This document shows, piece by piece, positions 2,492-56,154 of a stretch of 64,000 nucleotides of DNA. This DNA comes from a virus (lineage: Duplodnaviria > Heunggongvirae > Uroviricota > Caudoviricetes). The stretch is taken from positions 44,894 to 108,893 of the IMG/VR virus record IMGVR_UViG_3300008261_001827. One strand, 5' to 3'. Under the pieces are notes generated by a model, which saw nothing but the letters and a program-made list of their open reading frames with translations, searched no databases and was not told the origin of the DNA. A program made the position numbers and the translations under genes. How positions within the stretch are numbered: the stretch's first letter is position 1; each line of letters opens with the position of its first letter.

Positions 2492-3025
2492 ATGGCCTTC
2501 AATATAAACGAATTCAAATCACAACTAGTAGGAGGAGGAGCGAGACCATCGCTCTTCCAAGTCCAAATTACAAACCCAATCAATGCTATCGCTGACTTTA
2601 AAGTTCCTTTCATGGTAAGAGCAGCTGCTCTTCCTGAATCTAACGTAGGATCGTATCAGATACCATACTTTGGCCGTTTCATAAAGTATGCAGGTGACAG
2701 AACATTCGCAGACTGGACAGTATCCATCATTAACGACGAAGACTTCCTTATTCGCAATGCAATGGAAGCTTGGTCGAACGCGATTAACTCTCACGACTCA
2801 AATTCGAGAGCTCTTCCGCAGACATATAAGTCAAACGCGATCATAACACAGTACAGCAAAGATGGTAGACCTCTTCGTACATACGTGTTCGAAGGAATAT
2901 ATCCTATTGCCATCGGAGCGATACCAATGGCGTGGGAATCAACCGACCAGATTGAAAACTTTGATGTTACTTTCCAGTACGACATGTGGAGAGTTGAGGG
3001 CGCTACTGGCATTTCAACTACTTAA
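2492..3025 (+). CDS. gp19: Tail tube protein
   Basis: 177 aa. ARPSLFQV and AGDRTFADWTV match T4 gp19 (ARPNLFQV, AGDRTFDDWTV). SD AAAAGGAG. Confidence 0.9.
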   Translation: MAFNINEFKSQLVGGGARPSLFQVQITNPINAIADFKVPFMVRAAALPESNVGSYQIPYFGRFIKYAGDRTFADWTVSIINDEDFLIRNAMEAWSNAINSHDSNSRALPQTYKSNAIITQYSKDGRPLRTYVFEGIYPIAIGAIPMAWESTDQIENFDVTFQYDMWRVEGATGISTT

Positions 3026-3041
3026 TTATAGGATGTAAAAT

Positions 3042-4706
3042 TTGCGTATCTTTGGCTTTGAGATAAAGAGAGACATCGGCGGTGCCGAAGAAGAAAAAGC
3101 TGTCTCCTTTGTAGAACCTAATAACGACGAAGGTGCGATCACCATAGGAAACTCTTTAGGAGGATCCTATGGTATCGCCATCAACATGGAAGGCGACGCC
3201 AAAACAGAAGGCGAACTCGTCACCAAGTATCGTGGAATGATGATGCAGCCAGAGATAGGTCAGGCAGTTGATGAGGTAGTTAACGAGGCGATCAATATTG
3301 ATACGCACGAAAACGCTGTAGAGGTAGTTCTAGACGACACTGAACTTCCTGATAAAGTAAAGGATCGAATCGTCGAAGAGTTTGAAGAAGTACTTCGTCT
3401 TCTTGACTTTTCGAACTATGGGTACGATATCTTTCAGAAGTTCTACGTAGACGGTCGTCTTAACTATCATATCATTATCGATAATGAAAACATTAAAGAC
3501 GGTATTAAAGAAATACGATACATCGATCCTCGCAAACTTCGTCTCGTAAAAGAAATGGACGAGAAGGCGAAAGATCCACATTCAGGTATTCCTCTTAAAA
3601 AGATTAAGAAAGAGTACTATCTCTATTCAGATGCTGGCTTTGGTTCGAAGTCAGTTTCAAACAACATTCATTCTGGGCAAACGGTACAAGGCTATCGCAT
3701 TGCGAAGGATTCCGTTGCTAGAGTAACGTCAGGACTAATGAATGAAACGAACTCATTGGTCCTATCGTATCTTCATCCTGCGATCAAACCGTTAAACCAA
3801 CTTCGTATGCTAGAAGATGCTACGGTTATCTATACGATCACCCGTGCTCCAGAAAGAAGAATATTCTATATCGACGTAGGACAACTTCCTAAAGCAAAGG
3901 CCGAGCAGTACCTACACGATATGATGACTCGTCATAAGAATAAACTTCAGTATGACTCTGATAGCGGCGACATTACAGACGGTCGCAAGTTTATGACTAT
4001 GACTGAAGACTTTTGGTTTCCTCGTAGAGGTGGCGAGAGATCAACTGAAGTTGATATTCTTGCGGGAGGAAGCGCACAGGCTCTTAGCCAAGATGAAAAC
4101 CTTCAGTACTTCCAAAGAAAACTGTATAAGTCTCTAAAGGTTCCGATATCTCGTCTAGAACCAGAAACTATGTATAGCTTTGGAAGAGTCTCAGAAACTA
4201 CACGTGACGAACTCAAGTTTGGCAAATTCATTCGCCGTCTAAGAGCTCGTTTCTCTGGTCTATTTGATCTTCTTCTAGAAAAGCAACTCATACTTAAAGG
4301 TATCCTAGATCCTGAAGAATGGGCTGAAGTTAAAGATAAGATCCGCTATGACTTTATGAAGGACAACTACTTTGAGGAACTCAAGCAGACTGAAATTCTT
4401 CGTGAAAAAGTCAATATGCTAAAGGATATAGAAGAGCAGATCGGTAAGTATTACTCTCGTGAGTGGGTCGTTAAGAATGTTCTGTTCATGACTGACGACG
4501 AAATGAGAGAGATGCAGAAACAGATGGATAAAGAGAAAGCAGCTGGTCTATACGATATAGAAATGCCTGGCGATCAACCACCTGACCAAGATCAACAGCC
4601 TCCTGCAGATCAACAGCAGCCTCCACAGGACGATCTAGAGGCAGAAGAATCATTAAAAGTTATAAATAACAGAATAAAACCATTCAAAAGAGGGCTCAAC
4701 AAATGA
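3042..4706 (+). CDS. gp20: Portal vertex protein (TTG start inferred; the true start may differ slightly)
   Basis: 554 aa, collinear with T4 gp20 (IKPLNQLRMLEDATVIYTITRAPERR, MTMTEDFW, TRDELKFGKFIRRL). Acidic Q/P-rich C-terminus. Confidence 0.88.
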   Translation: MRIFGFEIKRDIGGAEEEKAVSFVEPNNDEGAITIGNSLGGSYGIAINMEGDAKTEGELVTKYRGMMMQPEIGQAVDEVVNEAINIDTHENAVEVVLDDTELPDKVKDRIVEEFEEVLRLLDFSNYGYDIFQKFYVDGRLNYHIIIDNENIKDGIKEIRYIDPRKLRLVKEMDEKAKDPHSGIPLKKIKKEYYLYSDAGFGSKSVSNNIHSGQTVQGYRIAKDSVARVTSGLMNETNSLVLSYLHPAIKPLNQLRMLEDATVIYTITRAPERRIFYIDVGQLPKAKAEQYLHDMMTRHKNKLQYDSDSGDITDGRKFMTMTEDFWFPRRGGERSTEVDILAGGSAQALSQDENLQYFQRKLYKSLKVPISRLEPETMYSFGRVSETTRDELKFGKFIRRLRARFSGLFDLLLEKQLILKGILDPEEWAEVKDKIRYDFMKDNYFEELKQTEILREKVNMLKDIEEQIGKYYSREWVVKNVLFMTDDEMREMQKQMDKEKAAGLYDIEMPGDQPPDQDQQPPADQQQPPQDDLEAEESLKVINNRIKPFKRGLNK

Positions 4707-7018
4707 AGACTCTACGTCAGATAATATCAGAGGTCGCGCAGCCAAAGGCCGGTGACGAGAAAGATTTCAAAGATAAACATATCATTGATAAGGTAGATCA
4801 TCCTGTTGCCCCTGATCACGCGTTTACTGGAAATACAAAAAAGGCGCCTAAGCGCAGAGCAGACTACGATAAGGGCGAAGATGAGACTGTCTACGAAGGT
4901 AGCTTTGATGTTCCTACCGCTGAAGGTGGTGAGCACGATACCGAGGACAGCCATGTAAAGTATAAGAAGGGAAATAAGCCTTCTAAATCTGTTAACGAAG
5001 CAGTGTTTGTAATTCCTGAAGAAATCCTTGCAACTGAAAAGAATGCGTTCCACACCGCTGCTGCAAACGCTCACAAGTCAGGTGCAAAGCACTTTGCCTT
5101 TGGTGGCAAGAAGTATCCAGTCACGATGTCGAAGGATGCTGCTAGCACATTCGCTGGTAAGGGTTCCATGAAGAAGGAAGCAATGGATCCGGTCGGCAAA
5201 GAAGATGGTGACATTGATAACGACGGTGATAAGGATAAATCAGATAAGTATCTTCACAATCGTCGTAAAGCGATTGGCAAAGCTATTCGTAAAGAAGAAG
5301 TTGAACTCGACGAAGCAACCTTCTCTATGGATATCGATGGCAATTATAAGAAAAACGCCGCCTCAGGTGCGTTAAATGCAGGTCTTAAGATTAATTTTAA
5401 GCAGCACGGCGGTGCCACAGAAATGATTCTTATGGGTGATAAAGATAAGATTACAAAATTCTTAAAAGCTCGTAAGGTTCCATCTGCAGAAATAAACAAC
5501 GGTTTTGTAAAAGAAGAAGCCGAAGAACTCGATGAGATCTCTCGCGACCTTGCTCGTAGATATATTCGTAAAGTTGCTGACAAAACCAACACAGGCGAAT
5601 TAAGCACTAAGGAAGTCATGAAGCGTAGACCTGGTGTAAATCTTGCTGGCAAAAAAGCATACCCTGGGGTTGCTGGTGAACCAAAGGTTCGCGCTACCGA
5701 GAGTGTAGAGCTGGATGAAATTAGTAAGAAGACTCTTGGTTCATATATCAAGAAAGCTAATATAAGCGCTATGGATCAGGCTAGAAAGTCTGGAGAATAT
5801 AATAACCCAGATCAACCAAAGAATTTTAGCAAAGCTATGGACAGAATGCGCGGTATTAAAAAGGCAACTGATAAACTCGTTGCTAAAGAAGAAGTCGAAC
5901 AACTCGACGAGCTTTCTCCAAACACTCTACATAGCTACATCAAGAAAGCTGCTGGTAATATGGCAGGTAATGCTGCTGTTGCTGCTGCTCAGGCATCTTC
6001 ATCGATGAAGAAGTCAAGTCCAGATGTAAAGCGTAAGATCAAGAACCGTATGATGGGTATATCTGGCGCTTCTGGTCGTCTCGCTGATAAAGCAAACATG
6101 GCAGAAGACGCATACGAAGAAATTCCGATGATGATGAGCCAACTTGAGTTCATTTGCTACGCAGCGGAAGAGATCATGGACTACCTCGATATGGGGATAG
6201 ACCCAGAAGAGTGGTATCAAAACAAGCTATCAAATGCTTATCAGACAATGATGTCTCTATACTCTTATGCTCGTGGCGAGATGAGAATGACATCTAGATC
6301 TGGCGGAAGCGGATACTATGACGACATGTATGGAGAAGAAGTCGAGCAGATTGATGAGATTTCGCAAGACAAACTTCGCGACTATCACGCTGCGGCTGCT
6401 TTAGATCTTAAGAAGAAAAGAGAGAAGCTAGATAAAGGCACTCTAACTTCTAAAGACTATAAGCAAGGACAGAACCGTGTAACTGGCCTAAACAGATCCG
6501 CAAACAAGATGGAAGAAGTTGAACTCGAAGAAGATATAACAAAAATGTCTCACGGGCGTCTTAAGTGGCATATGAATAGTGGCGTACCACATGGTAGCTA
6601 CACTAAAGACGAAATGAAAAAAGAAAGAGATCGTCGTTTAAAGACAGATCCTATGGGCTATCGCTCAGCAAAGGCTGGTCTTAACGAAGTAACACATACT
6701 GCTCTTAAAAAGACTATTTCTTATACGGACTCACAAGGAAAGAGCAGAACGAGAAACGTTCCGATCTCAAACGTAGATCGCGATGCAGACGGTGAAGAAA
6801 AGATCCGAGAGTCTGTAGAACTTACAGAAGTATTCAACCAAGGTATCGTAAAACTTAAGGACGGATCATCTGTAATACTTAAGAAGGAAGACGCCGATCT
6901 TCTAAATCAAATGCTTAAGGATCTTTCTTCCGCAAATCGTAAAAAAATGGAAGAAGTCGCAATGAAAGATAAGACTGGATTTAACGAAATCCTTAGCTTT
7001 GCGAGGGAAGCACTATGA
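4703..7018 (+). CDS. Large repeat protein in the gp67/gp68 prohead-core slot; candidate polyprotein with about 8 gp21-type (L/I-x-E) repeat junctions
   Basis: 771 aa. Start overlaps the gp20 stop (ATGA). N-terminus MKTLRQIISE resembles a capsid-targeting leader. Repeated EEVELDE-[IL]S-xxx-L-xxY-IKKA modules about 70-100 aa apart. Confidence 0.6.
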   Translation: MKTLRQIISEVAQPKAGDEKDFKDKHIIDKVDHPVAPDHAFTGNTKKAPKRRADYDKGEDETVYEGSFDVPTAEGGEHDTEDSHVKYKKGNKPSKSVNEAVFVIPEEILATEKNAFHTAAANAHKSGAKHFAFGGKKYPVTMSKDAASTFAGKGSMKKEAMDPVGKEDGDIDNDGDKDKSDKYLHNRRKAIGKAIRKEEVELDEATFSMDIDGNYKKNAASGALNAGLKINFKQHGGATEMILMGDKDKITKFLKARKVPSAEINNGFVKEEAEELDEISRDLARRYIRKVADKTNTGELSTKEVMKRRPGVNLAGKKAYPGVAGEPKVRATESVELDEISKKTLGSYIKKANISAMDQARKSGEYNNPDQPKNFSKAMDRMRGIKKATDKLVAKEEVEQLDELSPNTLHSYIKKAAGNMAGNAAVAAAQASSSMKKSSPDVKRKIKNRMMGISGASGRLADKANMAEDAYEEIPMMMSQLEFICYAAEEIMDYLDMGIDPEEWYQNKLSNAYQTMMSLYSYARGEMRMTSRSGGSGYYDDMYGEEVEQIDEISQDKLRDYHAAAALDLKKKREKLDKGTLTSKDYKQGQNRVTGLNRSANKMEEVELEEDITKMSHGRLKWHMNSGVPHGSYTKDEMKKERDRRLKTDPMGYRSAKAGLNEVTHTALKKTISYTDSQGKSRTRNVPISNVDRDADGEEKIRESVELTEVFNQGIVKLKDGSSVILKKEDADLLNQMLKDLSSANRKKMEEVAMKDKTGFNEILSFAREAL

Positions 7019-7254
7019 TACTTAAAGCTTTAAACACTGAACTATCATTCACATCTGCAAACACCGTATACGACTCAAAACTAGTTCGTATCTATGCGGC
7101 TGCAAATTCAGTCATCACAGTTACTAGTGCGACGAATCCAACAGCAACGTTCACGATGCCGCAAGGGACGATAGAAATTCTAGAAAAACTTTCTACAGAT
7201 ACGATTGCAGGATCGACCACCATTAAATGCACTCCAGTTTCATATAAGAATTAA
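7015..7254 (+). CDS. Hypothetical 79-aa protein (gp67-sized, prohead-core position)
   Basis: ATGA coupling to the upstream gene. SD GAGGGAAG. Sits between the portal and protease genes. Confidence 0.45.
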   Translation: MILKALNTELSFTSANTVYDSKLVRIYAAANSVITVTSATNPTATFTMPQGTIEILEKLSTDTIAGSTTIKCTPVSYKN

Positions 7255-7283: not shown

Positions 7284-7958
7284 ATGAAACTGATTACAGA
7301 AACAATCGAAGAAGTTCAAGTTGTCACTGAGGCAAACGAGAACGAGCCAAAGCAGTACTTCATCGAAGGTATCTTCATGCAGGGCGATATCAAGAATCGC
7401 AACGGACGCATATACCCTTCAACAATTCTTGAAAAAGAAATGATGAGATATGAGGATCAGTTCATCAAGACAAAGAGAGCTCTTGGCGAACTTGGACACC
7501 CAGACGGACCGCAGATAAACGGTGATCGTGTCTCTCACCTCATCACAGATATGAAGCGTGACGGATCGAACTTCGTTGGTAAAGCAAAGATACTTAGCAC
7601 ACCAATGGGTAACATCGTAAAAACTTTTATCGATGAAGGTGTAAAGGTTGGTGTATCTACTCGTGGTCTTGGTTCTGTTAAACCAACTAAAGAAGGTATC
7701 ATGGAAGTTCAGAACGACTTCCATCTTGCTACTGTAGATATCGTTACGGATCCTTCGGGTCCAAACTGTTTTGTTAACGGAATCATGGAAAATACAGAGT
7801 ATTTCTACGACATAGTTTCCGGAACTTGGAGAGCCCAGCAGATGATCGAAGAGGCCGTGAAGGAAGTGAAGAAAACGTATAAGAGAACTGAAAGAAAGAT
7901 TGACGAAGCGTTTGCTGCTCGTCTCTTTGAAAACTTCGTTCGTTCTCTGAAGAAATAA
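7284..7958 (+). CDS. gp21: Prohead core protease
   Basis: 224 aa. YFIEGIFMQ, RIYP..ILEKE, ALGELGHP and STRGLGS match T4 gp21. Confidence 0.9.
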   Translation: MKLITETIEEVQVVTEANENEPKQYFIEGIFMQGDIKNRNGRIYPSTILEKEMMRYEDQFIKTKRALGELGHPDGPQINGDRVSHLITDMKRDGSNFVGKAKILSTPMGNIVKTFIDEGVKVGVSTRGLGSVKPTKEGIMEVQNDFHLATVDIVTDPSGPNCFVNGIMENTEYFYDIVSGTWRAQQMIEEAVKEVKKTYKRTERKIDEAFAARLFENFVRSLKK

Positions 7959-7962
7959 GTTT

Positions 7963-7970
7963 TATAAATA
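7963..7970 (+). promoter_or_regulatory. T4-type late promoter TATAAATA upstream of gp22
   Basis: Exact TATAAATA. It overlaps the first in-frame ATG (7970), which argues for the ATG at 8009 as the real start. Confidence 0.55.
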
Positions 7971-8008
7971 TGGATATGAAACACGAATCCATTAAAAGGA
8001 GAGTAAAT

Positions 8009-8953
8009 ATGTCAAAGTTAGAAGAAAAATTTGTAAGCGATGACGGTGTCTCTACGGTTCCTGATGCTGTTACACCAGAAGGTGGAGAAGTTAAGGCACG
8101 TAGAGGAGACGTAAAGAAAGCTGTCGATCCAAAGGCAGGTTCTGTTGCAAAGCCTCCAGTTTCCGAGTCAGAAGAAACTGAAGAAGAAGTAATCGAAGAA
8201 GAAGTTGTTTCTATTGAAGAATCAATTTCTAGCATGTTCGAAGGTATCGATCTTTCAGAAGAATTCAGATCAAAGGTAACGCTCGTATTCGAAGCAGCTG
8301 TAAATGAAGCAGCTCAGATTCGTATAAACGAAGCAACCGCAGCTCTTGAAGAAGAATTCGAACAAAAGCTTACAGAATCCGTTAGCGAAGCTATGGATGA
8401 AATCGTAGAGAATCTAGACTCATACCTCGACTATGTAGTAGAAGAGTGGATGAAAGAGAACGAAGTTGCTATCGAAGCTGGTATCAAAGTTGAGATGGCT
8501 GAGTCCCTAATGAGTGGACTTAAAGAACTATTCACTGAGCACAACATCGATATCGACGATGAGACTCTAGATGTAGTTGCTGGCCTAGAAGAGCACAACG
8601 CTTCTCTAGCGGATCAGGCAAACGAAGTGATCAACGAAAACATCGAGCTTAAGAAGACTATTGTTGCTCTTAAGGCTGATAAAGTTTTTGAAGAAGTTTC
8701 AGAAGGACTCACCGTTTCTCAGAAAGAAAGACTAAGAGTTCTATCAGAAAAGCTTGACGCTGATAACGTCGATGGCTATAAGTCAGATCTTGAAACTCTT
8801 AAGGAATCTTTCTTTAAGACTAAGAAATCTCAAGTGATCAACGAAGAAGCAGAAGAAGTTCTTACTGAAGAAGTGGCAGTTAAAAAGCCAGCATCTTCGT
8901 ATTCAACCGTCAATGCCATCGTTGAAGCACTAAACAAGAAAACTGTTAAGTGA
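8009..8953 (+). CDS. gp22: Prohead core scaffold protein
   Basis: Highly acidic, coiled-coil-rich, about 315 aa. Lies between gp21 and gp23. SD AAGGAG 7 nt upstream of the ATG at 8009. Confidence 0.75.
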   Translation: MSKLEEKFVSDDGVSTVPDAVTPEGGEVKARRGDVKKAVDPKAGSVAKPPVSESEETEEEVIEEEVVSIEESISSMFEGIDLSEEFRSKVTLVFEAAVNEAAQIRINEATAALEEEFEQKLTESVSEAMDEIVENLDSYLDYVVEEWMKENEVAIEAGIKVEMAESLMSGLKELFTEHNIDIDDETLDVVAGLEEHNASLADQANEVINENIELKKTIVALKADKVFEEVSEGLTVSQKERLRVLSEKLDADNVDGYKSDLETLKESFFKTKKSQVINEEAEEVLTEEVAVKKPASSYSTVNAIVEALNKKTVK

Positions 8954-9011: not shown

Positions 9012-10322
9012 ATGAGTCAATCTAATAGAACTTTAGTCGAAAAGTGGGGTCCTCTTCTTGAGCACTCTTCATTCTCGCCAATCAAAGACGAGCACAGAAA
9101 AGCAGTAACTGCTACTCTACTCGAAAACACAGAAAAGGCACTTCTTGAGTCCGGCGACCAGTCAATCAACATGACTTCGCTCCTTCAAGAAGCTCCAACC
9201 AACTTCGCCGGAACCGGCGGTTTTGGTTCAAGCGCAGCTACACCACAAGCTGGTTACGACCCAATCCTCATCAGCCTAGTTCGTCGTTCCATGCCAAACC
9301 TAATGGCATACGACATTGCTGGTGTTCAGCCAATGACCGGCCCAACTGGTCTTATCTTCGCAATGCGTTCTAACTACAACGCAATGTCAGGTAACACCGC
9401 AGTAGAAGCTTTCTACGGCGAAGCTGACTCCGACTTCTCCGGTACAGGCACAATGGCTGGTACAACCGGTGGCGCTGCTACCGCAAACACCGGTACTGGT
9501 ATGACCACTGCAGCTGCTGAAGCTCTTGGCGACGGAAACGGAACCAACTTCGCACAGATGGCTCTTGCTATCGAAAAAGTTACCGTATCTGCAAAGAGCC
9601 GCGCGCTAAAAGCAGAATACACCACTGAACTTGCACAAGACCTTCGTGCTGTTCATGGTCTTGACGCAGAGTCCGAACTTGCTAACATTCTTCAGTCTGA
9701 AATCCTCGCAGAAATCAACCGTGAAGTTGTTCGCACAATCTATACCTCTGCTGTAACCGGTGCTGCAAACACTGCTGCTGCTGGCGTATTCGACCTTGAC
9801 GTTGACTCAAACGGCCGTTGGTCAGTTGAGAAGTTCAAGGGACTTATGTTCCAGATCGAACTTGAAGCTAATGCAATTGCAAAAGCTACTCGTAGAGGCA
9901 AGGGTAACATCGTGGTCTGTTCTTCTGACGTAGCTTCCGCTCTTCAGATGGCAGGTGTCCTCGATTATACACCAGCTCTCAACAGCAACGCTCTTAACGT
10001 AGACGATACCGGAAACACCTTCGCCGGTGTTCTAAACGGTCGCTACAGAGTTTATGTAGATCCATACGCTGGTGCAAACTACATGGTCGTAGGTTACAAG
10101 GGTGCATCTGCTTTCGACGCAGGTATCTTCTACTGCCCATACGTTCCACTACAGATGTACCGCGCTGTTGGTGAAGACAGCTTCCAGCCAAAGATCGGCT
10201 TCAAAACCCGCTACGGCATGGTTGCTAACCCATTCGCTTTCGGCCCAACCCGTAGCGAAGGTGCTCTTACTGCAAACAGCAACGTCTACTACAGACGCGT
10301 TAGAGTATCTAACCTATTCTAA
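9012..10322 (+). CDS. gp23: Major capsid protein
   Basis: 436 aa. VRRSMPNLMAYDIAGVQPM, SAKSRALKAEYTTELAQDLRAVHGLDAESEL, YRVYVDPYA and FKTRYG match T4 gp23. The N-terminal region contains LLE/LQE protease-site motifs. Confidence 0.95.
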   Translation: MSQSNRTLVEKWGPLLEHSSFSPIKDEHRKAVTATLLENTEKALLESGDQSINMTSLLQEAPTNFAGTGGFGSSAATPQAGYDPILISLVRRSMPNLMAYDIAGVQPMTGPTGLIFAMRSNYNAMSGNTAVEAFYGEADSDFSGTGTMAGTTGGAATANTGTGMTTAAAEALGDGNGTNFAQMALAIEKVTVSAKSRALKAEYTTELAQDLRAVHGLDAESELANILQSEILAEINREVVRTIYTSAVTGAANTAAAGVFDLDVDSNGRWSVEKFKGLMFQIELEANAIAKATRRGKGNIVVCSSDVASALQMAGVLDYTPALNSNALNVDDTGNTFAGVLNGRYRVYVDPYAGANYMVVGYKGASAFDAGIFYCPYVPLQMYRAVGEDSFQPKIGFKTRYGMVANPFAFGPTRSEGALTANSNVYYRRVRVSNLF

Positions 10323-14883: not shown

Positions 14884-15243
14884 TTAAGCTGCGAAGCGCA
14901 TTTTTGCCATTTGCTCGGTGCACTTGTAACGCTTGCCGTCAGCGACGTTGAGGTAGATGAACGGCATCTTCGGAGCGCGAGTGTTGTAGTCAACAAGCTC
15001 GTCGCCATACTTGTTTTTCATCTTCAAGCCGAGAGCAGCAACACGGCTCTCAAGGATCACGTTCGTGAAAGTCTTAGCACCCTTAACTTTCGCTTTGACT
15101 TTGATCTCAACTTCAGCTTCTGAAAACTTCATGTCTCCGACTGTAATATCAAGGTTGGAGTCAACGCCGTACTTTGCGAGGAGAGCCTCCATTTCAGTGC
15201 GGAGGGCTTTCAGATTGCTGCGGTCAAACTTGGAGAATTTCAT
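14884..15243 (-). CDS. Hypothetical protein
   Basis: 119-aa ORF downstream of a family promoter. Confidence 0.5.
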   Translation of the reverse strand: MKFSKFDRSNLKALRTEMEALLAKYGVDSNLDITVGDMKFSEAEVEIKVKAKVKGAKTFTNVILESRVAALGLKMKNKYGDELVDYNTRAPKMPFIYLNVADGKRYKCTEQMAKMRFAA

Positions 15244-52047: not shown

Positions 52048-52197
52048 TTATTTCTCCTTGTGATTGAGTTTTAGTTCTTCATTATATTTCTTATTTAACT
52101 CAATATTCGTATTCATTTGTATTTCGTATGGATCGAAGTTATTTATGATATCTTGAACAAGTCTTTCGTTAAAGATCCTCATAAACAGCTTTATCAT
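52048..52197 (-). CDS. Small hypothetical protein (not in ORF track)
   Basis: 49-aa ORF, ATGA-coupled to the upstream gene. Confidence 0.35.
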   Translation of the reverse strand: MIKLFMRIFNERLVQDIINNFDPYEIQMNTNIELNKKYNEELKLNHKEK

Positions 52198-53045
52198 TTC
52201 TTTGTTTCTAGATGCTTCTTTGCGTCCGCTTCTGTATCGAATTCCTTGTAGTACTTACGATCCAGTGTATGAACTGCGTACTTTGCTTTCTTTGGAAACT
52301 TGTTGTAGACTTTAGTTACACGAAGATCTGAAGCTTCATCTAGTTCAGCTTCTTCTTTTGTAGCAAGAACTTTTGCTCTACCGGTCTGCTTAGCGAATGC
52401 TAGGTCACGACCAAACTTACGCTTACGATACTTATCGGAGCCATCGTCACCAGATGGTTGATCTGCGAATGCTTTCTGGCGATATGCGTCCAACTTCTTA
52501 TCAGAGACTTCGTCTAGCTCTACTGATTCTTTACGATTGTATACATATACATCGTGATGAGCCGCGTCTGCTTTTTGGATACGCTGATGCGAATGTCCGC
52601 CTGATTTTCCCGAAACGTCGCTATTTACACGTTTGCCATCTTTATATTGTGCGCTAGGTGCATCCTTAGAATACTTATGTGCATTAGGATTGTCTTTACC
52701 TAAACGACCCTGCAGCACAACCCGCTTACCGGTACCTTTTACAGACTGTTTAAGATCCGCCAATTTCTTTTCGGATGCAGCATCACCAGGTTTGTGAGTA
52801 AATTGATATGAGGAACTCTTGCGTTCTTCATCAAGTTCTGCTTCTTCTTTTCTCATTCCAGCTTCACGTTCAGCGCCAAGCTTAGCAGCAATAGCCATCT
52901 GCTGACGCTTCTTCTGAGACTTACCTTTAAATTGTGGAGCGTCCGAGTCTTGGAAGTCTTTTACCCAATCACCCATATCATCGGATGCTTTGAGTTTTTC
53001 TTCGAGCTCGATCGATTCTTGAATAAATTTAGAAAAGCGCTTCAT
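52194..53045 (-). CDS. Putative capsid-targeted internal protein with ELDE repeat junctions
   Basis: N-terminus MKRFSKFIQESIE. Three [AV]ELDE-[EVA]S repeats homologous to the modules of the 771-aa protein. Late promoter 29 nt upstream. Confidence 0.6.
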   Translation of the reverse strand: MKRFSKFIQESIELEEKLKASDDMGDWVKDFQDSDAPQFKGKSQKKRQQMAIAAKLGAEREAGMRKEEAELDEERKSSSYQFTHKPGDAASEKKLADLKQSVKGTGKRVVLQGRLGKDNPNAHKYSKDAPSAQYKDGKRVNSDVSGKSGGHSHQRIQKADAAHHDVYVYNRKESVELDEVSDKKLDAYRQKAFADQPSGDDGSDKYRKRKFGRDLAFAKQTGRAKVLATKEEAELDEASDLRVTKVYNKFPKKAKYAVHTLDRKYYKEFDTEADAKKHLETKK

Positions 53046-53073
53046 GGTTTCCTCTTGGTGAAAATCTGTTTAA

Positions 53074-53081
53074 TCTATTTA
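53074..53081 (-). promoter_or_regulatory. T4-type late promoter (TATAAATA on minus strand)
   Basis: Forward tatttata, 29 nt upstream of the 53045 ATG, with SD AAGAGGA in between. Confidence 0.5.
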
Positions 53082-53090
53082 TAAAAGTGT

Positions 53091-53615
53091 TTACCACTTT
53101 ACCTTGTCAGCCCAGTATGCAGCAGACATCTTACCCTTTGCAATGTTCTTTCCGTGGCGAGCTTTGAACGACTTTCTCTTCATCTTCATTCTCTCAGACT
53201 CGCCTTCTTTAGGATCGCCTGCCGTCTCTGCGCCCTGTTGACCGAAACGAATCGTCTTTACCTGATTGCCGTCCTTGGCGACCACGATATGACTCTTTTC
53301 TGGATGACTAGGAGTTGCTTTTGGTTTATTAAAACCTTGGACGCCAGCTCTCTCGATACGTGGATCTTTTTCTTCATCGAGATCAGCTTCTTCTTTAAGA
53401 CGCCCTGATTTGGTTCCATGATCGAAGTGTCCACGATTGTTACCTTGCTTGTCTTTAGCAATCTGGTATTTTGTCATTTCGCCGGATGGGTGTGTCATTG
53501 ATTTAACAACTAGTCCACGAGCCTTTGCTGAACTTTCCCATTCGGAAGCATTTTTAAATAGACCACCAACGTTTTCATCTATCTTAGCTTCTACGAACTG
53601 CTTGAAACTCTTCAT
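53091..53615 (-). CDS. Putative capsid-targeted internal protein (basic)
   Basis: N-terminus MKSFKQFVEAKIDE. 174 aa, Lys/Gly-rich. Contains an EADLDEE junction. Confidence 0.55.
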   Translation of the reverse strand: MKSFKQFVEAKIDENVGGLFKNASEWESSAKARGLVVKSMTHPSGEMTKYQIAKDKQGNNRGHFDHGTKSGRLKEEADLDEEKDPRIERAGVQGFNKPKATPSHPEKSHIVVAKDGNQVKTIRFGQQGAETAGDPKEGESERMKMKRKSFKARHGKNIAKGKMSAAYWADKVKW

Positions 53616-53905
53616 TTCATTAACCTTTCTACGGTTTCTATTGCTTTTTTACCATGAGGATGATGTGGATTAATACTAACAACGTCACCGTTCATTAGGT
53701 CTGATATGCTTGCGGCTTTACCTAATCCATCGATAGCTTTATGTAGTGGATCATTTTTATCATAAGTAACTTCGTAGTTCTTTTTTCCTCTAACTTCAAC
53801 CCAACTAGCCTGCTTTGAATCCTTTAGTTTCAACACATCAACATTCTTATCACGAATGTATTGAACAAAGTATGATTCTGATATGTATTCGCTAAACTTT
53901 AGCAT
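53612..53905 (-). CDS. Putative capsid-targeted internal protein (start uncertain: ATG at 53905, ATG at 53923 or TTG at 53932)
   Basis: Chosen start gives MLKFSEYISE, matching the leader family. Confidence 0.45.
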   Translation of the reverse strand: MLKFSEYISESYFVQYIRDKNVDVLKLKDSKQASWVEVRGKKNYEVTYDKNDPLHKAIDGLGKAASISDLMNGDVVSINPHHPHGKKAIETVERLMK

Positions 53906-53906
53906 C

Positions 53907-54284
53907 TTATCCGCCGAACTCATGGCCAGCAACGCGACGCATCTGCTTATTGAACTCAGCCTGTGATGGCTTTTCTTTATAGAGTTTGATCGAGATCTCA
54001 GGGCGTTCCTTGCCCTTGATGCGCCAGTTCATACCCTTTTCCTTGTGTTCAGGATCCGTTGTCTTTACAACACGGCGCTTGTAACCGGCTTCCCAAGTTT
54101 CCGAAGCTTCGGAAACGGCTGTGTCGCACTGACGACAACAATCAGGCGTTCCGCAGTTTACATGCTCGTTTACTGGAACGCAGTTAGGAACTTCTCTACC
54201 ATCTTTCATTTTCATACCTACTTGACGATATCCAACCCAGCAGGGTCCTTTGTTTTCTTCTAGAAATTTCTTAAACGATTTCAT
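53907..54284 (-). CDS. Putative capsid-targeted internal protein, Cys-rich
   Basis: N-terminus MKSFKKFLEENK. CVPVNEHVNCGTPDCCRQC cysteine cluster. Confidence 0.55.
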   Translation of the reverse strand: MKSFKKFLEENKGPCWVGYRQVGMKMKDGREVPNCVPVNEHVNCGTPDCCRQCDTAVSEASETWEAGYKRRVVKTTDPEHKEKGMNWRIKGKERPEISIKLYKEKPSQAEFNKQMRRVAGHEFGG

Positions 54285-54292
54285 TTTATTAC

Positions 54293-54826
54293 CTATTCTT
54301 CGTAATATGGGTTATTAGGATCTGCATCTTTAGTAACATCTGGCCACCAATCCAATTCAAATCTTTTTCCATCAGCAAACATTTTCTTCATTGATTTAAT
54401 ACGCTTTTCATATTCAGCTTTAGATGGTTTAACATTTCCTTCCACAACATCCATTACATACTGAAGAGTTACTGCGTTTGCACTAAGACTCGCGCATCTT
54501 CCTCCGACTTCGCCTTTAAGATGATCTATCAGTATGCTCTCGCTGCTCATTGCGAGAGCATTAGAGAGTTCGTGCGGTACCTTTAGATCTATATATGAAT
54601 AAACATAGTCATAGTGTGGTACAGGAGAAGCATGCAGAATGTATTCGTCTAACACTTCTACTCTCTTAAATCCATCTTTGTTATACCAAACGGCTCTCAT
54701 TTTTGTAAGTTCGTCAGGAAGGCCAAAGAAATTGGTAAGATGCATTACATACTCTGCGGGCTCGTCATTATTCCAGCGAGATAGGATATTACTAATATCG
54801 TTTGAAAACTGCTTAAACGACTTCAT
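54293..54826 (-). CDS. Putative capsid-targeted internal protein
   Basis: N-terminus MKSFKQFSNDIS. 177 aa. Confidence 0.55.
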   Translation of the reverse strand: MKSFKQFSNDISNILSRWNNDEPAEYVMHLTNFFGLPDELTKMRAVWYNKDGFKRVEVLDEYILHASPVPHYDYVYSYIDLKVPHELSNALAMSSESILIDHLKGEVGGRCASLSANAVTLQYVMDVVEGNVKPSKAEYEKRIKSMKKMFADGKRFELDWWPDVTKDADPNNPYYEE

Positions 54827-56154
54827 ACCTTTATCTCCGGGTTAGGTGTACGAAAATTCTTTTTTCTCATAATAGTCTTTGATATAACAACAAGTTCGTC
54901 ATTCTTACGATCGTATTCCACCGCTATCGGCATGTTAAGATCCGTCTGCATATCCTTAATGACAGCTTCGGCATCTACAAACTTACTTAATGATTTATCA
55001 CCGCCCTGATACTTCTTATAGATCTTCTGTATCATACCAGCAAGTTCTTTCATATCGATACATGGATCGTTACGAGAATCGGTCATACGTTCGCGGAAAT
55101 GCTTTGTGAATTCAAAGTTTACATTGAACCTTTTAAACATACGATCTACAAACTGTTCAAAAGCTTGCATGTGAGCGACTGTAAAGATAGGACATTGATC
55201 TGCTTCTAGTACTAACTCTTCTTTTAATCTATTAGTAATTTTTTTAAATCTACGAAATGCTTTTTCTTCAATTTGACTAACTCTAGAGATGCTAAGGTTT
55301 AACTCTTTTGCTATCTGTCCCAAGGTCATATTATCAACGAATCGCATTTTATATACTTCAAGTTCTCTATCTCTTGCGGCGGCGCTTTTAGCATCGCCTG
55401 GTTTTGTTTTCTTGTACATAGCTATTATCTTTTGCAAATCAATTTTAGAATCAATGCTAATAGCTTCATTAACTTTACGTTGAGCCTTTATCCACTCAGA
55501 AGCAGCAGAAGAAGCGGGTTTTGTCTTTGCCCAGCCTGCTATCTTTTTATATGTGGAAAGGACAGCACCTTCGTAGTTTGATCCTGTAGAATTATCTACG
55601 ATAAACATCTTCTGACGAAAGAAGTTCTGAAACTTTCCGAGGTTCTTTTGAACATCTTTCCACATTCTATTCACTTCAGAATCTGATAATGATCTTTCTC
55701 TCTTTCTATTACGATCGAGCGCAGTGTCAAGATCTGTGTTCACAAATATCATAGCAACTTCGTATCCAATACCACGAAGCATATCAGCTTGCTTTTGTAT
55801 CTTTTCGTAGTCCTTACCGGTTCCATCAATCACTAGACCAAGGCGACCGTCAATCGCAAGTTGCATCATTTTCGTGGTAAGAGCCTTCGCCTGTCCACGT
55901 ACTTCTTGACCCTTTGGAGAATAGATATCTTCAGGAGTCGGTTTTAGACCAACTTTCTTTAGAGCATTTTCGAACGCGATGTCTGAGTTAATCACTTTAA
56001 AACCAAGAGATGTAAGAGCAGTTCTGCCAACTATAAAAGACTTGCCGGATCCTGGACCACCAGCAAGAAAGATTGCTTTGAAGATGGAAGGGTCGTTAAC
56101 TCCTTCGTTAATGAACTGCTTAAAACTTAGCACTTTATTCACCACCGTTTCCAT
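54823..56154 (-). CDS. P-loop kinase (zeta/Pnk/AAA_33-like) fused to a sigma70 region-4-like HTH, with leader motif (alternative GTG start at 56133)
   Basis: FLAGGPGSGKSF Walker A. MTLGQIAKELNLSISRVSQIEEKAFRRFKK resembles sigma70 region 4.2. Residues 9-18 read LSFKQFINEG. Confidence 0.6.
   Translation of the reverse strand: METVVNKVLSFKQFINEGVNDPSIFKAIFLAGGPGSGKSFIVGRTALTSLGFKVINSDIAFENALKKVGLKPTPEDIYSPKGQEVRGQAKALTTKMMQLAIDGRLGLVIDGTGKDYEKIQKQADMLRGIGYEVAMIFVNTDLDTALDRNRKRERSLSDSEVNRMWKDVQKNLGKFQNFFRQKMFIVDNSTGSNYEGAVLSTYKKIAGWAKTKPASSAASEWIKAQRKVNEAISIDSKIDLQKIIAMYKKTKPGDAKSAAARDRELEVYKMRFVDNMTLGQIAKELNLSISRVSQIEEKAFRRFKKITNRLKEELVLEADQCPIFTVAHMQAFEQFVDRMFKRFNVNFEFTKHFRERMTDSRNDPCIDMKELAGMIQKIYKKYQGGDKSLSKFVDAEAVIKDMQTDLNMPIAVEYDRKNDELVVISKTIMRKKNFRTPNPEIKV

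Follow-up and report, generated by a model that had tools for sequence, protein, structure and literature searches.

A candidate modular head-core polyprotein encoded next to the prohead protease gene of a T4-like phage

Introduction

In T4, the genes for the small head proteins gp67 and gp68 lie between the portal gene (g20) and the prohead protease gene (g21). A T4-like phage known only from metagenomes has a gene for a 771-aa protein in this position instead. What does this protein do in the head? We analyzed a stretch of 64,000 nucleotides from this phage ("the window"), together with homologous loci. We tentatively propose that the protein is a late-expressed polyprotein of the prohead core that is targeted to the prohead and cut at its junctions, and that its basic modules are kept as internal proteins. 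This seems to us quite possible, if somewhat short of probable. We found no description of such a modular head-core polyprotein design in the literature.

The gene lies in the head-morphogenesis operon

The gene sits in the head-morphogenesis operon, next to the gene for the S77 protease, in the T4-type gene slot named in the first-pass annotation:

607-2466: tail sheath
2492-3025: tail tube
3042..4706, + strand: portal protein, gp20 type (PF07230); its stop codon overlaps the polyprotein start
4661..4668, + strand: TATAAATA, T4-type late-promoter consensus, 35 nt upstream of the polyprotein ATG
4703..7018, + strand: gene for the 771-aa modular, candidate head-core polyprotein (ATG start, stop codon 7016-7018)
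4703..4732, + strand: leader MKTLRQIISE (aa 1-10), similar to the capsid-targeting sequence of T4; its last residues, I-S-E, are a predicted protease site
7015..7254, + strand: 79-aa ORF (phrog_19805), no assigned function
7284..7958, + strand: prohead serine protease (Peptidase_S77, gp21 family), which presumably does the processing
7970-8953: T4-type scaffold
9012..10322, + strand: gp23-type major capsid protein

The polyprotein's ATG overlaps the portal stop codon (ATGA), with AAAGAGGG 8 nt upstream. TATAAATA is present 12 times in the window, versus 3.07 copies expected, and also precedes the protease, scaffold, and capsid genes as well as the gene for a 283-aa protein (described below). 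The homologous loci that we examined have an ORF of 85-90 aa in the position of the 79-aa ORF. In the capsid protein, SLLQE60/A (slashes mark cleavage positions) aligns with the T4 maturation site FLTE65/A (PMC9958956), so an L-x-E/A site is kept in a known substrate.

The leader's sequence supports its assignment to the T4 capsid-targeting type. In T4, the targeting sequence MKTYQEFIAE suffices for packaging, and cleavage follows its final Glu (PMC8442874). The leader and all seven of the junction strings quoted in the first-pass annotation are indeed present in the 771-aa ORF.

The protein is a string of dissimilar modules

The precursor has a mass of 85 kDa and a pI of 8.5. Our analysis supports a beads-on-a-string architecture within a single ORF. 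After the leader, the modules (all on the + strand) are:

4733..5314: M1, aa 11-204; ends in junction EEVELDE (5294-5314)
5315..5536: M2, aa 205-278; small alpha/beta unit; junction EEAEELDE (5513-5536)
5537..5719: M3, aa 279-339, ISRDLARRYIRKVA…; helical hairpin, pI 9.9; junction ESVELDE (5699-5719)
5720..5911: M4, aa 340-403, ISKKTLGSYIKKA…; canonical ~63-aa helical hairpin, pI 9.5; junction EEVEQLDE (5888-5911)
5912..6358: M5, aa 404-552; whole-module pI 4.8; junction EEVEQIDE (6335-6358)
6359..6532: M6, aa 553-610, ISQDKLRDYHAAAA…; helical hairpin, pI 9.0; junction EEVELEE (6512-6532)
6533..6829: M7, aa 611-709, DITKMSHGRLKWH…; pI 9.4; junction ESVELTE (6809-6829)
6830..7015: M8, aa 710-771, …GFNEILSFAREAL; C-terminal module, no junction after it

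M1 begins with a conserved N-domain (aa 11-66, common to phiM12 gp058), followed by a beta/alpha region; it also holds an EF-hand/dockerin-like loop, DIDNDGDKDKSD, and then a YLHNRRKAIGKAI helix. M5 has an N-terminal half that is homologous to M4 and a C-terminal half that is an acidic, hydrophobic helical domain. M8 is the last module throughout the family and has the highest pLDDT (80-85).

The segments had been described as mutually homologous. This holds for M4 (340-403) and the N-terminal half of M5 (404-466), which are clearly related (z = 8.8). M3 and M6 have little in common past a helix start of about 14 aa (z = 3.6), and M1, M2, the C-terminal half of M5, M7, and M8 have unrelated folds. 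We reject the idea of a single repeat: the modules belong to 25 or more families that are unrelated or only distantly related. Similarly, the description of the products as basic, Lys-rich peptides fits four of the eight predicted fragments (pI of 9 or above) but not the rest, once the acidic junction tail is counted. With their tails kept, the fragments have net charges of only +2 to +5, and three of them are close to neutral or acidic; this counts against our proposal.

The full-length AlphaFold model places each of the junctions where pLDDT, over a segment or a 10-residue block, falls below 50, flanked by better-predicted helical units; the junctions are predicted to be flexible troughs between modules. 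M4 modelled alone is a helical hairpin (pLDDT 78.7). In this single-module model, helix 2 runs on through the junction, which may thus be something other than an exposed linker.

A conserved acidic junction with the residues of a gp21 site

The P1 glutamates of the 771-aa protein are at aa 10, 204, 278, 339, 403, 552, 610 (plus 605), and 709. The successive gaps are 194, 74, 61, 64, 149, 58, 99, and 62 aa, so the even spacing of 70-100 aa claimed earlier was overstated.

The extended pattern E-E-[VA]-E-(Q)-[LI]-D-E gave nine overlapping matches at seven junctions, while 20,000 shuffles of the sequence gave a mean of 0.009 and a maximum of 2. The bare pattern [LI]xE was not significantly enriched over shuffles (11 versus 6.9 +/- 2.4, p about 0.07). 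The extended motif is therefore the real signal. To build a junction profile, we located junctions solely by the downstream helix, without selecting on the junction itself. The 194 non-redundant instances had Glu at P8 (0.76), Glu at P7 (0.81), Val at P6 (0.54), Glu at P5 (0.73), Gln at P4 (0.63), Leu or Ile at P3 (0.98), Asp at P2 (0.91), and Glu at P1 (0.98, and never Asp). Since gp21 cuts by the rule L/I-X-E (PMC9026906), the two near-invariant positions, P3 and P1, are the ones that define gp21 specificity, as the first-pass annotation had suggested. We also noticed that P1' is Leu or Ile in 95% of canonical junctions, versus Ala at the T4 sites that we checked (PMC8442874, PMC9958956); this counts against our proposal. 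And with seven to eight residues, the motif exceeds what gp21 needs, so the acidic stretch may serve another or an additional purpose.

Modules of 25 or more different families have the motif behind them, and EEVE, ELDE, VELDE, and EQIDE are the top 4- and 5-mers among 242 family proteins. The motif is missing after C-terminal modules (…FAREAL, or …KVRATD in P0053 and P0059), whereas internal copies of the …KVRATD type in P0053 and P0059 continue as …ATESVELDE. The DNA of the junctions is only 72-76% identical, with synonymous differences, which implies that selection acts on the peptide.

Within the window, the motif is found only in three leader-bearing proteins, besides weaker acidic I-x-E sites in the scaffold. 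Two of the three are encoded 47 kb away from the polyprotein gene:

52194..53045, - strand: 283-aa paralogous leader-plus-junction protein (MKRFSKFIQE/SIELEE/…), three junctions
53076-53083, - strand: TATAAATA of the 283-aa gene, its own late-promoter motif
53091..53615, - strand: 174-aa leader-bearing protein (MKSFKQFVEA…), one junction, KEEADLDE/EKD

The recurrence of module and junction at this distance had been noticed before and is borne out: the 283-aa protein has KEEAELDE/ERK, KESVELDE/VSDKKLDAYRQKAF, and KEEAELDE/ASD behind its leader. P0059 is an expanded positional orthologue of this protein. In second-locus proteins, the motif comes directly after the leader, with no module between (MKRF…E/SVELDE/).

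The protein might enter the prohead, lose only its leader, and otherwise persist intact, as a large protein that is internal or ejected. Its acidic stretches would then be structural linkers rather than cleavage sites, for instance by offsetting the charge of the basic hairpins within the molecule or by touching the scaffold or shell. Loss of only a leader has precedents in T4 Alt and in the internal proteins of T4, and the latter are cut once (PMC8442874). An intact protein would also fit with a strongly acidic motif, far longer than L/I-x-E, beside basic modules, with the lack of enrichment of plain [LI]xE, and with the helical junction in the single-module model. However, a pure charge linker needs neither an invariant Leu or Ile at P3 nor a P1 that is Glu and never Asp while P2 is 91% Asp. 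It also does not explain why terminal modules drop the motif, why the motif directly follows the leader at the second locus, where there is no module to neutralise, or why the junctions lie in low-confidence troughs of the full-length model. We consider an intact protein to be improbable.

The family is widespread, syntenic, and mosaic

The design is widespread in metagenomes: the family comprises 4,654 representative clusters at 50% identity. Among IMG/VR loci, the portal gene was immediately upstream at all 57 whose flank was long enough, and the gene for the S77 protease was at most 400 nt downstream at 49 of 53. Two metagenome loci had the same gene order. The junctions are likewise conserved across thousands of homologues.

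Family members always start with M-K-[TS]-F-x-x-[LIM]-[ILVM]-[SA]-E/V-A, a pattern similar to MKTYQEFIAE of T4, and end with a conserved "…FAREAL" module. Among the leaders of 42 distinct proteins, M1, K2, and E10 are invariant and position 8 is hydrophobic. The 142 complete proteins range from 245 to 1017 aa and have 0-12 junctions; length and junction count are correlated (r = 0.81), and the modal module length is 60-69 aa. Module order is variable, and the same modules recur at differing positions and in both types of locus. At about the junction at aa 403, identity to P0002 rises abruptly from 56% to 87%. The repertoire of modules includes DUF3008 and EF-hand units.

The 771-aa protein has no match to annotated families and no relatives among solved structures, as might be expected if its repeats were those of any generic repeat protein, or the scar of a recombination event, placed in the head operon by chance, and it had no role in the head. 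But this would leave unexplained the strict synteny, the start codon that overlaps the portal stop, the late-promoter motif upstream, the leader of the T4 capsid-targeting type, and the conservation of the junction as peptide rather than as DNA. On present data a non-head protein is unlikely, and we give it only a very slim chance.

Comparison with known head proteins

The only relatives that we found in cultured phages are gp058 of the Sinorhizobium phage phiM12 (YP_009142978, 135 aa) and its orthologues in phiM7, phiM19, and phiN3. In gp058, the portal-protease slot and the leader type (MKSFKQLVET) are the same, the N-domain is homologous (41.5% identity over aa 1-65), and the C-terminal module is alignable and preceded by L-L-E. 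But gp058 is a minimal version, without the inserted modules and without E-E-V-E-L-D-E junctions. Also, phiM12 has a separate gp67-like ORF (gp059), while the window has none. We found no multi-module member in cultured phages, where the N-domain was confined to the phiM12 group and the C-module had no tblastn match.

T4 gp68 (PF26830), gp67, and gp22 resemble the polyprotein in position (g20 - g67 - g68 - g21), in late expression, and in their multiple L/I-x-E sites, through which gp21 fragments the T4 proteins (PMC9026906, PMC9958956). The first-pass annotation placed our gene in the gp67/gp68 slot. This stands for genomic position but not for homology: there was no Pfam or PHROG match, and hhalign gave a probability of 0.4% against the gp68 profile. 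We therefore reject a gp67/gp68 homologue, and the resemblance is positional only. Furthermore, gp68 has 141 aa, is not modular, and lacks a targeting-type leader, and its family is narrow (234 matches, versus the thousands of clusters for the polyprotein).

Nevertheless, the polyprotein could be targeted and cut as we propose and yet be a sacrificial core or scaffold protein, equivalent to gp68, gp67, or gp22, with nothing retained or injected. It would help to build or size the prohead core and be chopped at the junctions so that pieces of ~7 kDa could exit before DNA packaging. The gene does fill the g67/g68 slot of the head operon; T4 gp22, gp67, and gp68 are cut to small peptides that are thought to exit (PMC9958956, PMC9026906); many closely spaced sites would guarantee small fragments; and the conserved N- and C-modules suggest a structural role that is independent of the variable middle. 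That gp67 and gp68 are degraded, with their peptides thought to leave the head (PMC9958956), counts against retention. However, filler has no need for at least 25 diverse and rapidly shuffled families of folded modules (DUF3008, EF-hand), nor for paralogous leader-bearing genes elsewhere with their own late promoters. A scaffold that determines size would hardly be expected to vary four-fold in length (245-1017 aa) among related phages, modules that are basic would tend to adhere to DNA, and there is no homology to gp68. A sacrificial role seems rather doubtful to us, though less so than an intact protein.

The internal proteins of T4 offer another precedent. Like the polyprotein, they begin with the decapeptide M-K-T-[Y/F/L]-x-x-[F/I/L]-I-[A/S]-E, which in T4 is cut by gp21 after the Glu (PMC8442874). 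Both include small basic units and combine a hypervariable gene content with a conserved leader (PMC8442874, PMC3012670). But the T4 proteins are encoded by separate small genes and are cut once each, whereas the polyprotein has many units, with internal sites between them, behind one leader in one ORF, and there is no sequence homology past the leader.

In the giant phages phiKZ, 201phi2-1, and SPN3US, a gp21-related prohead protease processes internal head proteins (inner-body or ejection proteins) by cleavage behind Glu at several sites (PMC9026906, PMC10052503). These giant-phage proteases have extended subsite preferences (in SPN3US, Val at P4 and Ser at P1'), and redundant sites are known (PMC9026906, PMC10052503). 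But their motif is S/A/G-x-E, the cuts mostly strip N-terminal propeptides off large mature proteins, and nothing in them corresponds to units of ~60 aa strung together by a fixed 8-residue junction. We found no structural match between these proteins and the polyprotein.

Polyvalent proteins (Iyer, Burroughs, Anand, de Souza and Aravind 2017, PMC5512222) similarly fuse unrelated modules in variable architectures in a virion-gene setting, and have been suggested to be packaged, to be delivered together with the DNA, and to be freed by proteolysis (PMC5512222). In these proteins, enzymatic or anti-restriction domains can be recognised, and a peptidase (MPTase) is embedded. In contrast, the modules here are tiny and uncharacterised, the 771-aa protein has no peptidase domain, and release would need the prohead protease to act in trans at a dedicated junction.

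Proposed role

The sequences themselves show the architecture, the conserved motif, the synteny, the late-promoter motif, and the mosaicism. We infer that the polyprotein is targeted and cleaved and, with most caution, what becomes of its fragments. The N-terminal decapeptide would act like the T4 capsid-targeting sequence, so that the protein enters the scaffolding core as this assembles on the portal. Once activated, the S77 (gp21-type) protease would cut behind the leader and behind the Glu of every junction, turning the precursor into about eight fragments of 6.7-21 kDa. The small and mostly basic helical-hairpin modules, with their acidic C-terminal tails, would stay on the DNA, much like T4 IPI-III, and would probably be ejected into the host. 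The conserved N- and C-terminal modules may be the ancestral part, a core protein, which alone remains in phiM12 gp058. The junction would serve as a universal adaptor between modules, so that modules could be added, lost, duplicated, or swapped, including with the locus 47 kb away.

Position of the polyprotein gene

The 771-aa protein, which we will call the polyprotein, is encoded among head and tail genes.

Genes around the polyprotein gene
607–2466, tail sheath
2492–3025, tail tube
3042–4706, T4-type portal (PF07230, E = 5e-155)
4703–7018 (+), polyprotein, 771 aa
7015–7254 (+), 79-aa ORF between polyprotein and protease; its only match is phrog_19805 (unknown function)
7284–7958, Peptidase_S77 prohead protease (E = 9.5e-36)
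After the protease, T4-type scaffold (PF25623)
After the scaffold, gp23-type major capsid protein (PF07068)

The ATG of the polyprotein gene shares bases with the portal stop codon (ATGA), and AAAGAGGG lies 8 nt 5' of this ATG. (Just 5' of the polyprotein start, at about 4580–4650, the C-terminus of the portal protein is a Pro/Gln/Asp-rich low-complexity tail, PGDQPPDQDQQPPADQQQPPQDD.) Megablast of the gene found no close DNA relative of this phage among 50,697 phage genomes. Its capsid protein is 60–66% identical to those of the Sinorhizobium phiM12 group, methylophage Melnitz, Stenotrophomonas phage DLP6, and T4-like cyanophages.

In T4, genes 67 and 68 sit between genes 20 and 21, so the first-pass annotation was correct to place the polyprotein gene, which is between the portal and the S77 protease, in the gp67/gp68 slot. 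Genomic position is what the polyprotein gene has in common with gp67 and gp68; the polyprotein has no Pfam or PHROG match to either family. We considered homology to T4 gp68 (PF26830) and rejected it: there was no Pfam match at E ≤ 10, and hhalign of the polyprotein's family against the gp68 alignment gave a probability of 0.4%. Nor does the polyprotein resemble T4 gp67 (~80 aa, helical at its N-terminus and poly-acidic in its C-terminal tail) in these features or in sequence. No ORF between the window's portal and protease genes is comparable to gp67, and the 79-aa ORF (7015–7254) is unlike it. (An ORF of 85–90 aa is in the position of the 79-aa ORF at both loci whose gene calls we examined, L003 and L004.) In phage phiM12, gp059 (L001:5831–6001, 56 aa, MSKALEMVKMAREGN…VKEEVQTEEGKSE) is, by eye, similar to the N-terminal part of T4 gp67 (MEGLIEAIKSNDLVAARKLF…); it has no counterpart between the window's portal and polyprotein genes.

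The sequence TATAAATA is the late-promoter consensus of T4; the window has 12 copies, versus 3.07 expected. Copies precede the genes for the sheath, polyprotein, protease, scaffold, capsid, 283-aa, and 867-aa proteins; the copy upstream of the polyprotein gene is at 4661–4668.

Sites of TATAAATA
4661, 7258, 7963, 8966 (+)
53076, 58767 (-)
Six further sites

The copy at 7963–7970 overlaps the first ATG of the scaffold ORF as listed (7970), so the true start is probably the Met of MSKLEE… at 8009. The scaffold homologue from locus L003 begins with MSGLEEKFVSD, which matches the MSKLEE… of the window's scaffold.

A conserved junction peptide between modules

The first-pass annotation quoted a series of acidic junctions between modules of the polyprotein, and all of those strings are present in it. 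The extended form of the junction, E-E-[VA]-E-(Q)-[LI]-D-E, matched 9 times (with overlaps), versus a mean of 0.009 across 20,000 shuffles. The bare motif [LI]xE is not significantly enriched (11 versus 6.9 ± 2.4, p about 0.07). It is the extended motif, not bare LxE, that carries the signal. Apart from weaker acidic matches, six-frame translation of the whole 64 kb yielded the extended motif in only three proteins: the polyprotein and two others.

Other carriers of the extended motif
52194–53045 (-), 283-aa protein, three copies
53091–53615 (-), 174-aa protein, one copy

The three copies in the 283-aa protein bear out the reported recurrence of the junction 47 kb away. All three proteins begin with an MK[TRS][LF]… leader. 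The weaker matches (acidic I/V-x-E) are in the scaffold, portal, and sheath proteins, with one more in an ORF near 14944.

At the DNA level, copies of the junction are just 72–76% identical and differ at synonymous positions, which rules out recent DNA duplications or recombination scars. The conserved entity is the peptide, not the DNA. Unbiased k-mer counting across 242 family proteins found EEVE, ELDE, VELDE, and EQIDE as the top k-mers; they exceed expectation about 100- to 2,000-fold, and a protein has several copies of them. String searches of the literature with these motifs found nothing relevant, as far as we searched.

To avoid circularity, we located junctions solely by the helix motif downstream and then read the upstream residues, which gave 194 non-redundant instances.

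Residue frequencies at 194 junctions (P1 is the Glu before the presumed cut)
P8: E 0.76
P7: E 0.81
P6: V 0.54, A 0.18
P5: E 0.73
P4: Q 0.63, E 0.25
P3: L 0.77, I 0.21 (L+I 0.98)
P2: D 0.91
P1: E 0.98, never Asp
P1': L/I 0.95

The T4 prohead protease gp21 cleaves after L/I-X-E (PMC9026906). The best-conserved junction positions that follow a physicochemical rule are the hydrophobic P3 and the Glu at P1, and these are the same two positions that define gp21 specificity. Nearly all of the 194 junctions have the P3 Leu/Ile and P1 Glu of a substrate of an S77 (gp21-type) protease, as do positions 8 and 10 of the leader.

The junction appears to be an element between modules and not part of any single fold, because a terminal copy of the …ATESVELDE-type module stops at …ATD, and because in proteins of the second locus (the region of the 283-aa gene) a junction comes straight after the leader (MKRF…E↓SVELDE↓, where arrows mark presumed cuts). 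These observations bear on one of the two main alternatives to junction cleavage and retention, which is that only the leader is removed and that the acidic stretches are structural. The junction motif exceeds the length that gp21 needs, it has a bulky Leu or Ile at P1', and a model of an isolated module (M4, aa 340–403) keeps the junction helical, all of which count against certainty of cleavage. Three features argue against a linker that is only structural: the residues at P3 and P1 are invariant, the junction is lost after terminal modules, and leader and junction occur in tandem in the second-locus proteins.

Extended subsite preferences are known from gp21-related proteases (P4 Val and P1' Ser in phage SPN3US; PMC10052503). 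The T4 major capsid protein gp23 matures by removal of 65 residues at …FLTE65↓A (PMC9958956), and the window's capsid protein has …SLLQE60↓A in alignment with this site. Near the N-terminus, scaffold proteins of this lineage have a junction-like acidic …EEVIE↓E…SIEE↓S.

A T4-like leader

The polyprotein begins with MKTLRQIISE, which has the length (~10 residues) and the L/I-x-E ending of the leaders of T4 internal proteins. In T4, the capsid-targeting sequence is MKTYQEFIAE; gp21 removes it, and it suffices for packaging foreign proteins (PMC8442874; PMC3012670). The two decapeptides are identical at 5/10 positions; the other changes include Y/L, F/I, and A/S. Across 42 distinct family proteins from IMG/VR, the leader reads M1.0 K1.0 [T.62/S.38] F.93 [K/R/S] x [L/I/M] [I/L/V/M] [S.64/A.26] E1.0, followed by V.93 A.86 [Q/E] P.98. 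Variants such as MKTFKQLIAE are very near the T4 sequence.

A large family of module strings

A word-indexed search found at least 1,961 related proteins at E ≤ 0.001 among 8,000 candidates scored, and when 50%-identity representatives were searched exhaustively, 4,654 clusters matched at E ≤ 1e-3, of which 1,139 matched at E ≤ 1e-10. The matched segments sit at differing positions in different proteins. No source gave a functional name for the family. The polyprotein has no Pfam domain even at E ≤ 10; its PHROGs matches are to families of unknown function only and cover aa 1–252; and in phage genomes, tblastn matches were confined to the first 65 aa and to the phiM12 group, with no match to the C-terminal module.

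Splitting the family proteins at junctions gave 1,614 modules, whose lengths peak sharply at 60–69 aa and have a median of 68. The first-pass annotation described evenly spaced junctions flanking mutually homologous modules. Both parts of this description are overstated: spacing in the polyprotein is not even, its modules are not all mutually homologous, and Louvain clustering with strict coverage gave at least 25 module families, which rules out a single repeat family. (Single-linkage clustering had lumped all of the modules together, as missed junctions created composite modules.) Most module families have a net charge of +5 to +13, with the junction excluded. In the polyprotein, modules M3 (aa 279–339), M4, M6 (aa 553–610), and M7 (aa 611–709) are individually small and basic (pI 9.0–9.9), while the whole protein has a pI of 8.5.

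The position of a module family within proteins is variable. The N-module with the leader is always first, and the "…GFNEILGFAREAL" module is always last, with no junction after it. Complete proteins (n = 142) have 245–1017 aa and 0–12 junctions, and the two are correlated (r = 0.81). Four homologues (P0053, P0059, P0098, and P0105) are near-perfect strings of 55–110-aa units, each ending with …EEVE(x)LDE. DUF3008 (E = 3e-20) and EF-hand loops are recognizable as units in some homologues. Identity between the homologue P0002 and the polyprotein rises from 56% (aa 1–403) to 87% (aa 396–771), with the break at about the aa-403 junction, which is consistent with mosaicism at the level of modules. 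At the small end, phiM12 gp058 (135 aa) has the leader, N-domain, and C-module only, and so represents the minimal state.

We also noticed a putative EF-hand or dockerin-like calcium-binding loop, DGDIDNDGDKDKSD, followed by a YLHNRRKAIGKA helix, at aa 168–193 of the polyprotein (window 5204–5281). The same element is in many family members (DNDGD in 124/242). Hypothetical proteins from cultured phages have it too, namely gp21 of Melnitz and gp125 of Synechococcus phage Sf-CH8, and in both a motif like the junction comes after it (KEEVELDE↓G and EELELGE↓A, respectively).

Two locus types

In two long metagenome contigs, the gene order is portal, family gene, 85–90-aa ORF, S77 protease, scaffold, and capsid. 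From IMG/VR, we confirmed 169 relatives and fetched 80 loci, of which 59 had a complete ORF from the leader to FAREAL (the end of the C-terminal family module). These 59 encode 42 distinct proteins of 233–864 aa with 1–8 junctions. The portal gene is directly upstream in 57/57 loci with enough flanking sequence, and in 49/53 the protease gene follows within 400 nt.

The homologue P0059 (711 aa, leader MKRFKSYINESVELDE) is encoded at a different locus, flanked by genes for DUF5824, DUF7207, and PG_binding_1 proteins, and the window's 283-aa gene has the same neighbors. We therefore distinguish two locus types, with modules common to both.

The 283-aa gene is in a run of seven genes on the minus strand (52194–58738), most of whose products start with a decapeptide like the T4 capsid-targeting sequence.

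Leader-like starts in the 52194–58738 run
283 aa, MKRFSKFIQE
174 aa, MKSFKQFVEA
106 aa, MLKFSEYISE from an internal Met
125 aa (Cys-rich), MKSFKKFLEE
177 aa, MKSFKQFSND
443 aa, …VLSFKQFINE near the N-terminus; Pfam AAA_33/zeta-toxin-like kinase and Sigma70_r4
867 aa, only KSFKEFDP at aa 16 and no N-terminal decapeptide; Pfam cytidylyltransferase-like and DUF5824

This run has the look of a locus for capsid-targeted cargo, akin to the internal-protein loci of T4. In the cultured cyanophage Sf-CH8, the cytidylyltransferase-like gp124 (L089:1802–2986) starts with a T4-targeting-like leader, MKSLFQFLSE↓A, and shares the motif FGRFNP…GH with the window's 867-aa protein (a likeness at the level of the motif). 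This is a hint that T4-like cyanophages, too, may package enzymes tagged with a leader. Melnitz gp20 (L007:2534–3922), a 462-aa hypothetical protein, starts with MTRYNKTMSE↓ALSE↓ and contains KKEEIEIDE↓M; it is a candidate leader-plus-junction protein from a cultured marine phage. Its gene does not adjoin the portal gene.

Structural models

The AlphaFold model of the full-length polyprotein is poor (mean pLDDT 56.8, pTM 0.21), as expected if the modules are independent beads on a string. Every junction is in a trough with a segment or 10-residue block at pLDDT below 50 (201–218, 259–276, 323–346, 388–404, 519–553, 601–633, and 699–708). The troughs part better-predicted units, mostly two-helix hairpins, along with small beta-containing units at 130–139, 229–244, 669–687, and 714–726. 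The C-terminal module reaches a pLDDT of 80–85. With 22 aligned family modules as input, M4 is predicted to be a helical hairpin (helices at residues 3–23 and 33–63, pLDDT 78.7), with the junction as the less confident end of helix 2.

A Foldseek search of BFVD with the low-confidence full-length model gave TM-scores of about 0.08. Three BFVD matches had E ≤ 0.001, all from uncultured Caudovirales phages; two are uncharacterized and one is named as EF-hand-domain-containing. The M4 hairpin matched only generic helical hairpins in PDB (E ≥ 3), so no DNA-binding fold can be claimed, and sequence and profile searches of PDB found no match.

Proposed processing and relation to known systems

The most economical reading is that the polyprotein is expressed late; that its leader carries it into the prohead core; that the adjacent S77 protease cuts after the leader and at each junction; that this yields about eight fragments (21.3, 8.1, 6.8, 7.2, 16.6, 6.7, 11.3, and 7.0 kDa, plus the 1.2-kDa leader); and that the basic hairpins, at minimum, would be kept as internal proteins. 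The sequences themselves show how the family is built, that it is conserved and syntenic, and that it is mosaic. The first-pass proposal of a processed polyprotein is supported in part. Sequence features argue strongly for capsid targeting and junction cleavage. Retention of the fragments, their ejection, and DNA binding are each suggested only weakly, and the other main alternative is that the fragments are expelled, in the manner of T4 core-protein fragments.

The polyprotein shares its leader and the basic character of some units with the internal proteins of T4, which are encoded by separate genes and cut once (PMC8442874). Whereas T4 IPI, IPII, and IPIII are small, basic, and cut at a single site, the polyprotein has 771 aa, a pI of 8.5, and seven further candidate sites. 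Polyvalent proteins (Iyer et al. 2017) are also proposed to be packaged and released by proteolysis as multiple modules, and have embedded peptidases and large enzymatic domains (PMC5512222). Like them, the polyprotein is a multi-module polypeptide with variable architecture in the context of virion genes, but it lacks an embedded peptidase (MPTase or similar) and recognizable effector domains, as no Pfam domain was found in it. The inner-body proteins of giant phages are cut at multiple sites by a gp21-like protease, as we propose here, but the motif and layout differ. We found no sequence matches to the inner-body or ejection proteins of phiKZ or SPN3US; the structural part of this comparison is weak, as it used a low-confidence model.

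Internal or core proteins that are processed by the prohead protease are a known kind; the polyprotein variant is abundant in nature and, as far as we searched, undescribed. A broader reading, which we consider rather unlikely, is that the junction is a universal "cut here" adaptor that turns both the head-core protein and the second locus into a delivery platform. The product of any small protein gene inserted between two junctions would be co-packaged by one capsid-targeting leader; the prohead protease would free it, and it would be injected along with the DNA. A combinatorial, quickly shuffled set of effectors of ~7 kDa (for anti-defense or DNA protection) would thus be widespread in uncultured aquatic T4-like phages. 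If true, this would be a polyprotein version of the internal-protein arms race of T4.

The internal proteins of T4 and their capsid-targeting sequence are a classic system and a biotechnological tool, known mainly from T-even phages. The family shows that a T4-type leader is kept even in distant parts of the T4 superfamily. In one lineage, many small cargo units have come to share one leader, and they are joined by a dedicated, extremely conserved junction at which processing is predicted. There are thousands of sequence clusters with this design, yet it is entirely absent from cultured phages and, as far as we searched, from the literature. If cleavage is confirmed, the junction would define an extended sequence that a gp21-family protease recognizes, the polyprotein would be a natural way to package several proteins at fixed stoichiometry, and the family would provide a large catalogue of candidate injected mini-proteins.
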